Positions 50,115 to 55,760 of a stretch of DNA of 64,000 nt are shown here, piece after piece. The stretch lies in the NCBI RefSeq assembly GCF_003334385.1, contig NZ_QOWN01000004.1. One strand, 5' to 3'. Source of the stretch: Escherichia coli (lineage in GTDB: Bacteria > Pseudomonadota > Gammaproteobacteria > Enterobacterales > Enterobacteriaceae). How positions within the stretch are numbered: position 1 is the first letter of the stretch; the number at the start of each line of letters is the position of its first letter. The translations under genes and the position numbers were made by a program. The notes under the pieces are model-generated. The model had not been told where the DNA came from. It searched no databases and was given only the letters and a program-made list of their open reading frames with translations.

Positions 50115-52028
50115 TTAGCGATCCATCTGATTGTATTTACGCCATAAACTCATTTTGCTGATCCCCAGATGGGCGGCGACTTTCTCTTGATCCTGTTCAA
50201 AAAGATCCATGTAGAAGGCAATAATCTGTCGCTCAAGATCTTTAATGACGGCTTTCAGTTGTCCTTTACTCAGATCCGCGACGATCCTCCCATTCGTCTG
50301 TGACGTGTTGCAGGATTTTAGCGCGTTAAAGCCGGTCAGATTTAATATTTCAAACAGCGAAGCGTTGGGAAATCCGGCGGATAATAGTGCCAGTCGCTCA
50401 ATAATAAAATTCAGTTCACGCACGTTTCCGGGCCAGTTGTAGGTGGAAAACAGCGCGATGAACTGCGCTAGTTTATGCCCGCAGCCCGATTTTTCGAGGA
50501 AGTGCTCAGCCAGAAAACGGACATCGCCCTCTCTTTCCCGTAGCGGAGGCACCATTAGCGGCAAGACGTTCAACCGATAGTAGAGGTCGCCGCGAAACGA
50601 GCCTTCCTCCGCCATTTTTTCCAGCGATCGGTTAGTGGCACCAATAATCCGCACATCGACAGGGATAATGTCCTTTCCCCCCACGCGCATAATTTCGTAT
50701 TCCTGTAAGACGCGTAACAGGCGGCTCTGAATAGGTAGCGGCAGCTCACCAATTTCATCGAGAAATAAGGTTCCCTGGTGCGCCAGTTCAATCAGGCCTT
50801 CTTTTCCTTCGCGCCGCGCACCGGTAAAAGAGCCCCCTTCATAGCCAAACAGTTCGCTTTCCAGCAGGGTTTCCGAAATGGCGGCACAGTTAATGGCGAC
50901 AAATGGGCCACGGTGGCATTGACTCTGGTTGTGAATACTCTGCGCGAATAACTCTTTACCGGTGCCGGATTCCCCATAAATCATCACCGGGGAGTGGGTA
51001 TTGGCATAAATTTTTGCCAGATGAATCACCGACTCCATGTGCTTATTTTGCGTGAGGATATGCTCAAACCGGTACCGGGCGGTGAAGCCTTTTTTCATCA
51101 GTTTGCCGCGAATAATCCGTTCCACTTTCTGGATTTGCGGCGTATCGGTAAACGAACACACCACCCCAATACACTGCGTACCACGAAATATTGGCACCCG
51201 ACTGGTAATGATGGACGTGTTGTCCAAATCCATAATTTCCCGAATTTCGGCGGATTTTGTCAGCAATACCTGATTAATCCGCGTATTTTTAATAACCGTA
51301 TCTACCGGTTTGCCAATTACCTGCGAGGCCATCAGGCCAAATATGTTCTCGGCGGATTTATTGAAGATCTGGATCTCGTTATTTTCATTGGTGACGATGA
51401 TCCCTTCCGTAATCGAGGAGAGGATGATCTCCAGTCGCGCCATATCCTGCTGCTTGCGGCGGGTCGTCTCAACGATAGCCATCGCTTCGCGCAGCGCGCT
51501 GTTCACCGATTCCAGACCATTTTCGATCAGAATTCCTTGCATCTCATAGTGTTCCGCCGTGTCTGACACCGGTAATCCTCCTGCAACCGTCTGGAAATTG
51601 CGTGTACGGCATTTTTTGAGTTTATCGACCATGTCGGCGTGCGACAGAAAGATAAATTCTTCAATCTCCACTTCCAGCGCGGTTGCCACCAGATTTACGT
51701 CAGATAAATAGTTCTGATAATTAAAAAAGGCGATTTTATGCGGATGTTTTTTCAGTGGCGTGAGTGATTTAAGCAAATCCAGCGCGGACGTGAGAATACG
51801 TACTACCGGAATTTTGGTCACGCGATCGATATAGTCCGCCGTACCGCCACGGCTGATAATGATGTCATAGAAGTCAGGGTCGAGATTACGGGCAATCCCC
51901 GCGGCTTTTTCCAGACTTCCGTGAAAAACATGGCAGTTAAAAATACCGGTGCACTGCTCAGTCACTACGGCTGCCAGTGCTGGATAGGGGGTAATTAAGG
52001 CCAGATTGGGTAACGTTTTATGTGACAT
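50115..52028 (-). CDS. Sigma-54-dependent transcriptional activator (PrpR-like N-terminal domain + PAS + AAA+ + HTH), 637 aa
   Basis: AAA+ sigma-54 activator motifs GESGTGKELFAQSIH (Walker A), GSFTGA (GAFTGA-type sigma-54 contact), FLDEIGELP (Walker B); C-terminal HTH; divergent from a catabolic operon. Confidence 0.85.
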   Translation of the reverse strand: MSHKTLPNLALITPYPALAAVVTEQCTGIFNCHVFHGSLEKAAGIARNLDPDFYDIIISRGGTADYIDRVTKIPVVRILTSALDLLKSLTPLKKHPHKIAFFNYQNYLSDVNLVATALEVEIEEFIFLSHADMVDKLKKCRTRNFQTVAGGLPVSDTAEHYEMQGILIENGLESVNSALREAMAIVETTRRKQQDMARLEIILSSITEGIIVTNENNEIQIFNKSAENIFGLMASQVIGKPVDTVIKNTRINQVLLTKSAEIREIMDLDNTSIITSRVPIFRGTQCIGVVCSFTDTPQIQKVERIIRGKLMKKGFTARYRFEHILTQNKHMESVIHLAKIYANTHSPVMIYGESGTGKELFAQSIHNQSQCHRGPFVAINCAAISETLLESELFGYEGGSFTGARREGKEGLIELAHQGTLFLDEIGELPLPIQSRLLRVLQEYEIMRVGGKDIIPVDVRIIGATNRSLEKMAEEGSFRGDLYYRLNVLPLMVPPLREREGDVRFLAEHFLEKSGCGHKLAQFIALFSTYNWPGNVRELNFIIERLALLSAGFPNASLFEILNLTGFNALKSCNTSQTNGRIVADLSKGQLKAVIKDLERQIIAFYMDLFEQDQEKVAAHLGISKMSLWRKYNQMDR

Positions 52029-52188
52029 AAATCACCATGGAAAATTTGTGGCTATCACAAACCAATATCACAACTGTTATAGATTTCAAAATTGAAAGCC
52101 ATTTTCCTCTCTCTCAGATAAATAGTAAAACGTAGTAAGGTTATTTATATCATATACTTAGGTTATTTATTTCTGTTTTATTCATTTC

Positions 52189-52204
52189 TGGCACACATCT
52201 TGGA
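52189..52204 (+). promoter_or_regulatory. Candidate sigma-54 (-24/-12) promoter TGGCAC-N5-TTGGA upstream of the CoA-transferase operon
   Basis: Perfect -24 element TGGCAC with correct spacing to an imperfect -12 element (TTGG instead of TTGC), ~60 nt upstream of the first ATG; the adjacent divergent gene encodes a sigma-54 activator. Confidence 0.3.
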
Positions 52205-54390: not shown

Positions 54391-54410
54391 CCTCTGATAC
54401 GGAAACAGAC

Positions 54411-55760
54411 ATGATGAATAATAATATCGGGAAGCCGAAGATGACCCATTACAGATGGTGGGTCATGAGTTTTATCTTTGTAACCTACACCGTGGCTAAT
54501 GCCGACCGCGCAAATATCGGCTTTGCTATTCCTTTTATTCAGGAAGAGTTTCAAATCTCGAATACCATGGCCGGGTTGTTAATCAGCCTGTTCTTTGCCG
54601 GATATGCGTTTTTTCAGATCCCTGCCGGGTACTTGATTAAGAAGTTCGGCATGCGTAATGCCTTTGCGATGGGTATGTTATTAACCTCCGTGTTTACGGG
54701 GTTGATGGGGATGGTGAACAACATTTTCCTGCTGAAGATCCTGCGTTTTATGGTGGGCATCTGTGAGTCACCGGTGGTCATTGGCTCGACGGTGACGATT
54801 AACCAGTGGTTCCCCCCGAAGGAAAAAGGGACAGCGACCGGGCTGTTTCTGGCGGGATCCAAGTTTGGTCCGTTGATCGTCCCGCCGCTGTGCGCCTGGA
54901 TCATCACCGTCTGGGGATGGCGCTATATTTTTGTCTTCTTTGCCATTCCTGGCTTGCTGTTGGCGATCTTCTGGTATCTGATGGTTCGCAATAAGCCGGA
55001 AGAAAGCCGCTTCGTTAATGAGCAAGAGGTCGCTTACATCCGCGAAGAACAGCTTCCGACGACGACCCAGGAAGCCGCCGCACCCGTCGCGCCTGAGTTC
55101 AATTACTGCTGGCTCGACAAGCTGATTCGCACAAAGCAGGTTGAAGAACTGTCCTGTTCAAAACAGGTCTTCCGCTGCTGGGATATTTATGGTGTCGCGC
55201 TGGGATACTTCTCGATGGTGGGGATCGTCAGCGTGCTAATGTCCTGGCTACCCAAGTATCTGATCACCGAACGCGGATTCGATCTGACGAGTTCTGCCGC
55301 GCTGGCGGCGGCGCCATTCTTCGGGACGGTAATGGGCAACTTTATCGGCGGCGTGCTTTCTGACCGGGTGCTGAACAAGCGTCGTAAACCGCTGATGTTG
55401 CTCAGTGCAGGGGCGACGATCTTCACCATGTACGCGCTGGTTTATGCGCCGGAAAGTAAAATCGTTCTGTCGCTGATGCTGTTTCTGCTGGGACTGATGC
55501 TGTCGCTGGGTTATTCCGCTTACTCGGTCTACGCGATGGGGCGGGCGAATAAAGACATTTACCCGATCGCTTACAGCGTGATCAACATGGGTGGTCAGTT
55601 GGGCGGAATGTGTATGCCACTGATTGTGGGAATTATTCTGGATGCTTACAACTGGGATGCGGTGTTCATGGCGATGACCGGGTTCTGTGTTCTGTGCTTT
55701 ATTCTGGTCTCCACGGTCATTGAACCGTTGTCGAAAAATATGAAGGTCAACTACCGGTAA
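54411..55760 (+). CDS. MFS transporter, ~449 aa
   Basis: 12-TM hydrophobic profile with MFS loop motif; start taken as ATG 54411 rather than the TTG at 54372, which overlaps the upstream gene. Confidence 0.75.
   Translation: MMNNNIGKPKMTHYRWWVMSFIFVTYTVANADRANIGFAIPFIQEEFQISNTMAGLLISLFFAGYAFFQIPAGYLIKKFGMRNAFAMGMLLTSVFTGLMGMVNNIFLLKILRFMVGICESPVVIGSTVTINQWFPPKEKGTATGLFLAGSKFGPLIVPPLCAWIITVWGWRYIFVFFAIPGLLLAIFWYLMVRNKPEESRFVNEQEVAYIREEQLPTTTQEAAAPVAPEFNYCWLDKLIRTKQVEELSCSKQVFRCWDIYGVALGYFSMVGIVSVLMSWLPKYLITERGFDLTSSAALAAAPFFGTVMGNFIGGVLSDRVLNKRRKPLMLLSAGATIFTMYALVYAPESKIVLSLMLFLLGLMLSLGYSAYSVYAMGRANKDIYPIAYSVINMGGQLGGMCMPLIVGIILDAYNWDAVFMAMTGFCVLCFILVSTVIEPLSKNMKVNYR

Follow-up and report, generated by a model that had tools for sequence, protein, structure and literature searches.

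Here we describe a four-gene cassette at positions 50115-55760 of a 64,000-nucleotide (nt) stretch of Escherichia coli DNA (NCBI RefSeq assembly GCF_003334385.1, contig NZ_QOWN01000004.1; this whole stretch is called the window) that appears to encode the regulated uptake and breakdown of an organic acid. A sigma-54-dependent activator, a bacterial enhancer-binding protein (bEBP), is divergent from three co-oriented genes encoding a family III coenzyme A (CoA)-transferase, a DRE-TIM metallolyase of the 3-hydroxy-3-methylglutaryl (HMG)-CoA lyase family and a major facilitator superfamily (MFS) permease. We hold with high confidence that the general mechanism, which is well supported, is import, CoA transfer and retro-Claisen cleavage under sigma-54/bEBP control. 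A preliminary description of the locus had already proposed that an organic acid is taken up, activated with CoA and cleaved at a C-C bond by the DRE-TIM lyase, which is the best-supported reading, and had named no substrate; comparative context now narrows the candidates to a citramalate-type 2-hydroxy-dicarboxylate. Our leading candidate is (R)-citramalate (D-citramalate), possibly with D-malate, an assignment that we judge to have about an even chance of being correct. A literature search found no paper on this cassette.

In the scheme that we propose, the activator would sense the organic acid or its CoA ester (the presumed ligands) through its PrpR_N/PAS module, bind palindromes about 95-125 bp upstream and use ATP to open a sigma-54 promoter at 52189-52204. 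The MFS anion symporter would import the acid, and the family III CoA-transferase would move CoA onto it from succinyl-CoA or acetyl-CoA, the presumed donors. The DRE-TIM lyase would then cleave the resulting 3-hydroxy-3-substituted acyl-CoA in a retro-Claisen reaction, giving acetyl-CoA and a 2-oxo acid; the products would be pyruvate (from citramalate) or glyoxylate (from malate) with acetyl-CoA. Were acetyl-CoA the donor, the two enzymes would form a closed cycle equivalent to citramalate lyase.

Gene layout, predicted promoter and activator

The open reading frame (ORF) listing confirms four intact ORFs within 50115-55760. The activator (637 aa; 50115-52028, minus strand) combines PrpR_N, PAS and AAA+ domains with a putative C-terminal helix-turn-helix (HTH). 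On the plus strand follow the family III (CaiB/BaiF/Frc-type) CoA-transferase (398 aa; 52265-53461; Pfam CoA_transf_3), the HMG-CoA-lyase-family DRE-TIM metallolyase (305 aa; 53473-54390; Pfam HMGL-like) and the anion:cation symporter-type MFS permease, a presumed organic-acid importer (449 aa; 54411-55760; MFS_1). The ORF listing, together with Pfam and NCBIfam matches, bears out the gene identities, the divergent PrpR/PAS-type activator and the three co-oriented genes of the preliminary description. The CoA-transferase could start at ATG 52265 or GTG 52253, of which the ATG is more likely because a Shine-Dalgarno sequence, GAGGGA, lies at 52255-60 and because RefSeq uses this start in an identical E. 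coli locus; RefSeq annotation of the identical locus likewise makes ATG 54411 a more likely permease start than TTG 54372. Gaps of only 11 and 20 nt separate the three plus-strand genes, so that their co-transcription as a predicted operon is likely. A terminator scan gave no signal above shuffled expectation, and Rfam searches at the gathering threshold returned no riboswitch or other RNA element in the leader, the sole matches being group II intron domains at 57441-57728.

A genome-wide scan gave 80 further loci. The same four genes co-occur amid unrelated neighbours in Kosakonia (lyase 70-75% identical), metagenomic enterobacteria and Pelosinus, and the four-gene cassette also recurs in Citrobacter. 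Upstream of the E. coli operon lies a sigma-54 promoter-like element, TGGCACacatcTTGGA (TGGCAC-N5-TTGGA; 52189-52204, plus strand), identified by pattern and by conservation across related loci; it lies 61 nt before ATG 52265, in agreement with the preliminary description, which had noted it about 60 nt 5′ of the first gene. Its -24 half matches the consensus perfectly, with GG at 52190-91, and the -12 half reads TTGG, with GG in place of the consensus GC. Transcription is predicted to start near 52213-52216. Counting both strands, 64 kb should contain 0.73 exact matches to TGGCAC-N5-TTG; the only other one, at 20809, was dismissed as it lies inside an ORF. Sites allowing one mismatch to TGGCAC-N5-TTGS were no commoner than chance (9 matches against 10.7 expected), and we therefore judged the promoter by the exact pattern and by cross-species conservation.

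That conservation is extensive. Orthologous intergenic regions align at 59% mean column identity, with the TGGCA and TTG columns invariant. Of the 18 related loci scanned that have an adjacent PrpR_N activator, 16 carry a TGGCA[CT]-N5-T[TC]G element 5′ of either the CoA-transferase gene or the transporter gene, spanning Enterobacteriaceae, Pasteurellaceae, Negativicutes and Clostridia; in the distant loci the -12 is a canonical TTGC. Conservation in orthologous and related loci is the strongest evidence that the predicted element is not a chance match, and its presence in 16 of 18 loci makes the predicted sigma-54 control of the operon well supported.

Other features of the 236-nt intergenic region (52029-52264), in which a pattern scan found no sigma-70-like match, are consistent with such control. 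Putative upstream activator sites are located about 95-125 bp upstream of the -24: an imperfect palindrome, ATATCAcaacTGTTAT (52064-52080), which corresponds to a perfect ATATCA-N4-TGATAT in Kosakonia, and a palindrome, TTTCAAaaTTGAAA (52083-52098). The palindrome columns are conserved in the alignment with Kosakonia and metagenomic orthologues. Between these sites and the promoter lies a weak pattern match to an integration host factor (IHF) site, TATCATATACTTA (52148-52160, plus strand), with one mismatch to WATCAANNNNTTR. The palindromes, the IHF-like site and the -24/-12 element are together predicted to form a classical sigma-54 promoter layout.

In the activator, PrpR_N covers residues 33-191 (1e-38), PAS residues 198-280 and Sigma54_activat (PF00158) residues 325-491 (1.7e-67), with an AAA lid in addition. 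The Walker A motif (GESGTGKE at 352), a GSFTGA loop at 399, which is a one-residue variant of the sigma-54 contact loop GAFTGA, and the Walker B motif (LFLDEIGE at 421) identify the protein as a bEBP-type AAA+ ATPase. The C-terminal HTH_8 match is weak in the window protein (independent E value 0.03) and is detected in orthologues. The best NCBIfam match is PrpR (TIGR02329; 396 bits against a cut-off of 499), and NF011953 scores 374 against 703. A PrpR equivalog is ruled out by scores below both curated cut-offs, the PrpR_N sensor being common to both proteins; the activator is thus classed, from these domain matches, as PrpR-like but not PrpR. Its setting nevertheless recalls PrpR/prpBCDE of E. 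coli and Salmonella, where a divergent PrpR_N-containing sigma-54 activator also stands beside a short-chain acid catabolic operon; the co-activator of PrpR is 2-methylcitrate, a 2-hydroxy-polycarboxylate. The two systems differ in the cassette activator's score on the PrpR model (396 versus 499 bits), in its extra PAS domain and in target enzymes that are unrelated to the methylcitrate cycle. If its predicted control is borne out, the cassette is a further sigma-54-controlled unit among the accessory genes of E. coli. In a related Testudinibacter locus (L007, 13313-16528), an rpoN gene (Sigma54_CBD and Sigma54_DBD, 426 aa) lies directly 3′ of the PrpR_N activator gene, such that this catabolic locus appears to carry its own sigma factor.

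The transferase–lyase pair and the hydroxymethylglutarate alternative

The CoA-transferase matches PF02515 (CoA_transf_3) over residues 8-374, that is, full length, with an E value of 1.7e-129. A GYD motif at residues 140-142 (GYDIIGQA at 140), identical in the Testudinibacter orthologue, corresponds to the motif associated in this family with the catalytic Asp. A homology search returned two statistically tied best solved relatives, human SUGCT (9br6, 1.7e-87) and E. coli YfdE (4hl6, 4.4e-87). All equivalog models fall short of their NCBIfam cut-offs: succinate-glutarate/HMG (344 versus 750 bits), oxalate (YfdE-type; 330 versus 522) and mesaconate (326 versus 700). The E. coli acetyl-CoA:oxalate and formyl-CoA:oxalate CoA-transferases YfdE and YfdW share the family III fold and, for YfdE, a similar score, but their partner is a thiamine diphosphate-dependent decarboxylase rather than a DRE-TIM lyase, and the cut-off of the YfdE-type model is not reached.

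The lyase matches PF00682 (HMGL-like; 2.2e-45) and is a DRE-TIM metallolyase by its residues: R13, D14, E44, H204, H206, C237 and N246 are present, are invariant in a clade alignment of 13 relatives and align with the human HMGCL motifs, namely the Arg-Asp pair, the Glu, both His metal ligands, the Asn and the glycine-rich-loop Cys. It scores 291 bits against a cut-off of 246 on PRK05692, an HMG-CoA-lyase model of subfamily (not equivalog) rank after which RefSeq names it, and the KEGG-derived source names on its homologues are likewise HMG-CoA lyase, not citramalyl-CoA lyase. Its identity to solved HMG-CoA lyases is 38-42%. In a neighbour-joining tree of 92 lyases, built without support values, it falls in a clade apart from the human, Brucella and B. 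subtilis HMG-CoA lyases, and no leucine-catabolic genes neighbour it in the annotated GE3 locus or in related cassettes.

The permease matches MFS_1 (2.9e-64), and its best NCBIfam match is the D-galactonate/anion:cation symporter subfamily TIGR00893 (231 bits against a cut-off of 395). These matches place it among the MFS anion:cation symporters (ACS, 2.A.1.14-type), at superfamily and subfamily level only. Orthologous MFS genes are kept in the Kosakonia and Pelosinus cassettes.

These family assignments raise the alternative that the cassette degrades free 3-hydroxy-3-methylglutarate, which a SUGCT-like transferase would convert to HMG-CoA and a true HMG-CoA lyase would split into acetoacetate and acetyl-CoA, the acetoacetate being used by the chromosomal ato genes. 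The top solved match of the transferase is indeed the human succinate-hydroxymethylglutarate CoA-transferase (1.7e-87), but that match is statistically tied with an oxalate enzyme (YfdE, 4.4e-87), and the succinate-glutarate, oxalate and mesaconate models score alike, far below cut-off. The lyase passes the PRK05692 subfamily model that RefSeq naming follows and keeps all HMG-CoA-lyase catalytic residues; it nevertheless shares only 38-42% identity with proven HMG-CoA lyases and groups separately from these in the tree. Free HMG is consumed by gut bacteria, with responsible genes not annotated in Snodgrassella (PMC11343714), yet no acetoacetate-handling gene accompanies the cassette at related loci, and the LeuCD-type hydratases of the sister operons described below need a 2-hydroxy acid, which HMG is not. 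On this balance we consider the HMG explanation unlikely.

The human pair remains a useful comparison, as SUGCT and HMGCL are the best solved relatives of the two enzymes, follow the same two-step logic and, in HMGCL, share the conserved catalytic residues. The cassette lyase differs from HMGCL, to which it is about 38% identical, at clade-invariant positions (RDGFQN versus RDGLQN, SPKAIPQM versus SPKWVPQM and HLHNTHG versus HCHDTYG), and the gene context of the cassette relatives points to 2-hydroxy acids. Cahn–Ingold–Prelog (CIP) analysis indicates that the groups around C3 are arranged identically in (S)-HMG-CoA and (R)-citramalyl-CoA, so that an HMGL-type active site is compatible with (R)-citramalyl-CoA.

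Both steps proposed for (R)-citramalate, CoA activation (EC 2.8.3.20) and Claisen cleavage (EC 4.1.3.46), are known reactions (PMC8307300). They are carried out in Chloroflexus aurantiacus by Sct and Ccl, again a family III CoA-transferase with a partner lyase, which cleaves a 3-hydroxy-3-methyl-3-carboxy acyl-CoA to acetyl-CoA and pyruvate. The (R) stereochemistry matches that expected from a LeuCD-type hydratase, whereas the Chloroflexus pair has neither a sigma-54 activator nor a permease, and the host is a phototroph. Friedmann et al. reportedly described Ccl, in 2006/2007, as HMGL-like and adjacent to sct. To our knowledge, D-citramalate catabolic activity was described biochemically decades ago and has been genetically defined only in Chloroflexus; if our assignment is true, genes for the breakdown of D-citramalate (possibly D-malate) can now be named in Enterobacteriaceae, in a small and self-contained unit of four genes and one promoter.

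Sister operons and a possible late-activation route

The substrate assignment draws on the gene neighbourhoods of the transferase–lyase pair. Of the 31 loci that fall in the 45-60% identity bin, 25 have the CoA-transferase gene next to the lyase gene, and within the clade the two are almost always adjacent. Outside the enterobacteria, the nearest loci encode CoA-transferases that are 56-71% identical to the E. coli enzyme (69-71% in L016 and L020) and lyases that are 45-57% identical. Repeatedly, the pair is found there in operons that also encode a LeuC/LeuD hydratase of archaeal type and a PrpF-family isomerase: in Testudinibacter (L007, 6811-16528), Ruminococcus (L016, 6986-12051), Mediterraneibacter (L020, 6982-12054) and Peribacillus (L056), and also in Oscillospiraceae (L025, L032, L033 and L035), Negativicutes (L014, L030 and L031) and Clostridiales (L040). 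The order in L016 and L020 is CoA-transferase, LeuC, LeuD, lyase, isomerase.

LeuCD-type enzymes hydrate citraconate to (R)-citramalate, and Mii-type enzymes relocate the double bond in (methyl)itaconate. The Testudinibacter isomerase matches the Eubacterium barkeri 3-methylitaconate isomerase best (3G7K, 3.7e-103, versus 2.5e-75 for PrpF), and the best match of the small hydratase subunit is the M. jannaschii isopropylmalate/citramalate isomerase subunit 3VBA. The specificity loop of that small subunit is a conserved YMEL, where isopropylmalate isomerase has YLVY and homoaconitase has YLRT with its Arg, and the lack of the homoaconitase Arg argues against a tricarboxylate substrate. Carriers encoded at the sister loci belong to the DASS, CitMHS, TRAP or MFS families of carboxylate carriers, and chemoreceptor genes are sometimes adjacent, an ensemble that would fit dicarboxylate catabolism. 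The simplest reading of these operons would be a path from itaconate (or mesaconate) through citraconate, (R)-citramalate and (R)-citramalyl-CoA to pyruvate and acetyl-CoA. Sister operons that combine a LeuCD-type hydratase with a 3-methylitaconate-isomerase-like protein thus point to (R)-citramalate, possibly D-malate, as the acid on which the transferase–lyase pair would act; the E. coli cassette, having its own permease and neither hydratase nor isomerase, most likely takes up the hydroxy acid itself, to judge from its gene content.

Several points weigh against this assignment and the scheme around it. As the E. coli cassette encodes no hydratase or isomerase, its substrate is transferred from loci whose lyases are 45-57% identical to its own. 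The best solved relative of its CoA-transferase is human SUGCT, and its lyase passes an HMG-CoA-lyase subfamily model; the tree that sets this lyase apart is a neighbour-joining tree without support values. The -12 element of the enterobacterial (E. coli/Kosakonia) group is TTGG or TTGA, not TTGC. Finally, no cassette protein reaches an NCBIfam equivalog cut-off and no characterised orthologue was found. The same result, together with a lyase about 38-42% identical to solved relatives, also means that the clear orthology to a characterised pathway that the preliminary description had set against its own proposal is not seen.

The same scheme could serve a different hydroxy-di- or tricarboxylate: D-malate alone, 2,3-dimethylmalate, another 2-alkylmalate, citrate via citryl-CoA or a product released from an ester. 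The substrate of the cassette is, after all, only inferred, and both (R)-malate and (R)-citramalate are described as substrates of the Chloroflexus-type CoA-transferase (PMC8307300), although a conversion of maleate to D-malate would need no allylic isomerase. The closest solved relative of the sister-locus isomerase works on 3-methylitaconate and dimethylmaleate, but no B12 mutase or nicotinate-pathway genes that could supply methylitaconate lie near the sister loci. CitMHS and DASS carriers of the related loci also move tricarboxylates; tricarboxylates are in turn disfavoured by the YMEL loop, which has Glu where homoaconitase has its carboxylate-binding Arg. A further pointer to another acid is a variant cassette in Escherichia albertii NBRC 107761 (L011, 4819-11239) and in a metagenome-assembled genome (L009, 4651-11196), in which a carboxylesterase-like alpha/beta hydrolase is inserted between lyase and MFS genes. 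Its best PDB match, 1QLW, is a generic carboxylesterase without a substrate clue; the insertion suggests that in these organisms an ester of the acid may be the imported compound. Weighing both sides, we regard a different acid as rather improbable. For the sister loci specifically, a tricarboxylate reading (aconitate or citrate to citryl-CoA), raised by the CitMHS carriers and PrpF-family isomerases, was considered and is disfavoured by the Mii-like best match and the Arg-less hydratase loop.

Returning to (R)-citramalate, we tentatively propose, as a broader possibility that we hold with less than even confidence, that the E. coli cassette forms the last part of a so far unrecognised ‘CoA-late’ route for branched C5 dicarboxylates, one that would be widespread among gut anaerobes and certain pathogens. 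By this scheme, a Mii-like PrpF-family enzyme would isomerise itaconate (or mesaconate) to citraconate, from which a dedicated LeuCD-type hydratase with the YMEL loop would make (R)-citramalate; the family III CoA-transferase would activate the latter, and an HMGL-family (R)-citramalyl-CoA lyase would cleave the product. Carriers of the E. coli cassette would scavenge (R)-citramalate itself.

Comparison with known pathways brings out what would set such a route apart. Eubacterium barkeri combines Mii with DmdAB, much as the sister loci pair a Mii-like PrpF-family isomerase with a LeuD/DmdB-family hydratase, but genes of these kinds are absent from the E. coli window, and in E. barkeri the product is cleaved without CoA by an isocitrate-lyase-family enzyme. 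Classical itaconate degradation (Ict/Ich/Ccl; RipABC of Yersinia and Salmonella) also concerns C5 branched dicarboxylates and also ends in the cleavage of citramalyl-CoA to pyruvate and acetyl-CoA (PMC12290011). There, however, itaconate is activated first, its CoA ester is hydrated and a CitE-type (S)-citramalyl-CoA lyase acts last, whereas a DRE-TIM lyase is found here and hydration at the sister loci appears to precede CoA transfer. If true, the late-activation route would join Ict/Ich/Ccl as a second pathway for itaconate/citramalate, with a mechanism of its own. Itaconate-family compounds are abundant in faeces and bile (PMC12290011), and the sister operons of Ruminococcus, Mediterraneibacter, Oscillospiraceae, Negativicutes and Testudinibacter suggest an alternative use of these immunometabolites by gut bacteria. 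The cassette itself is an uncharacterised example of a familiar type of catabolic operon, and the predicted itaconate/citraconate pathway of the sister loci is the more interesting by-product.

Distribution and genomic island

Of 5426 complete E. coli genomes, 130 (about 2%) carry the 5.6-kb cassette at 99% identity or more, always chromosomal and single-copy. A plasmid origin was rejected, as megablast of the 5.6 kb against 72,556 plasmids gave just one 89-nt AAA+ fragment. A tRNA-Leu(CAA) gene at 22525-22609 marks the start of an island, and the cassette may be an accessory, horizontally acquired unit of this leuX-associated E. coli genomic island.

That setting invites the view that the cassette is just carried along, silent or decaying, by an island rich in insertion sequences (IS), or that it is transcribed by sigma-70 independently of the activator. 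Fragments of IS30, IS3 and IS21 and a broken group II intron do surround it, and the -12 element departs from GC. All four ORFs are nonetheless intact and at least 99% identical in the 130 genomes, with intact catalytic motifs, the cassette is kept across genera with its promoter element, and the intergenic region has no sigma-70-like site. We therefore consider either form of this explanation very improbable.

Elsewhere in the island, a 414-aa ORF at 22796-24040 follows the tRNA gene, a position compatible with the integrase of an island inserted at leuX, which makes the ORF a candidate for one. Comparison with the annotated GE3 locus (L001) places a dpd 7-deazaguanine DNA-modification/restriction cluster (dpdF-K and dpdD) at approximately 32500-46400 and queD at 45978-46394. 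A phosphorothioated-DNA-binding restriction endonuclease (48997-49833, minus strand; NF045808, 414 bits against a cut-off of 180) adjoins the cassette and appears to be an orphan, with no dnd/ssp modification genes among the ORFs examined at 46-60 kb. Just 3′ of the MFS gene, a 114-aa ORF at 56115-56459 (plus strand) has no NCBIfam match, is a hypothetical protein in RefSeq (strain GE3) and is not conserved at the Kosakonia loci. The Rfam matches at 57441-57728 correspond to group II intron domains D1-D4, and the associated reverse transcriptase/maturase frame is split into ORFs at 57892-58338 and 58242-59162, so that this copy is probably frameshifted and inactive. The IS30, IS3 and IS21 fragments lie at 47254-48963 and 56669-57055.

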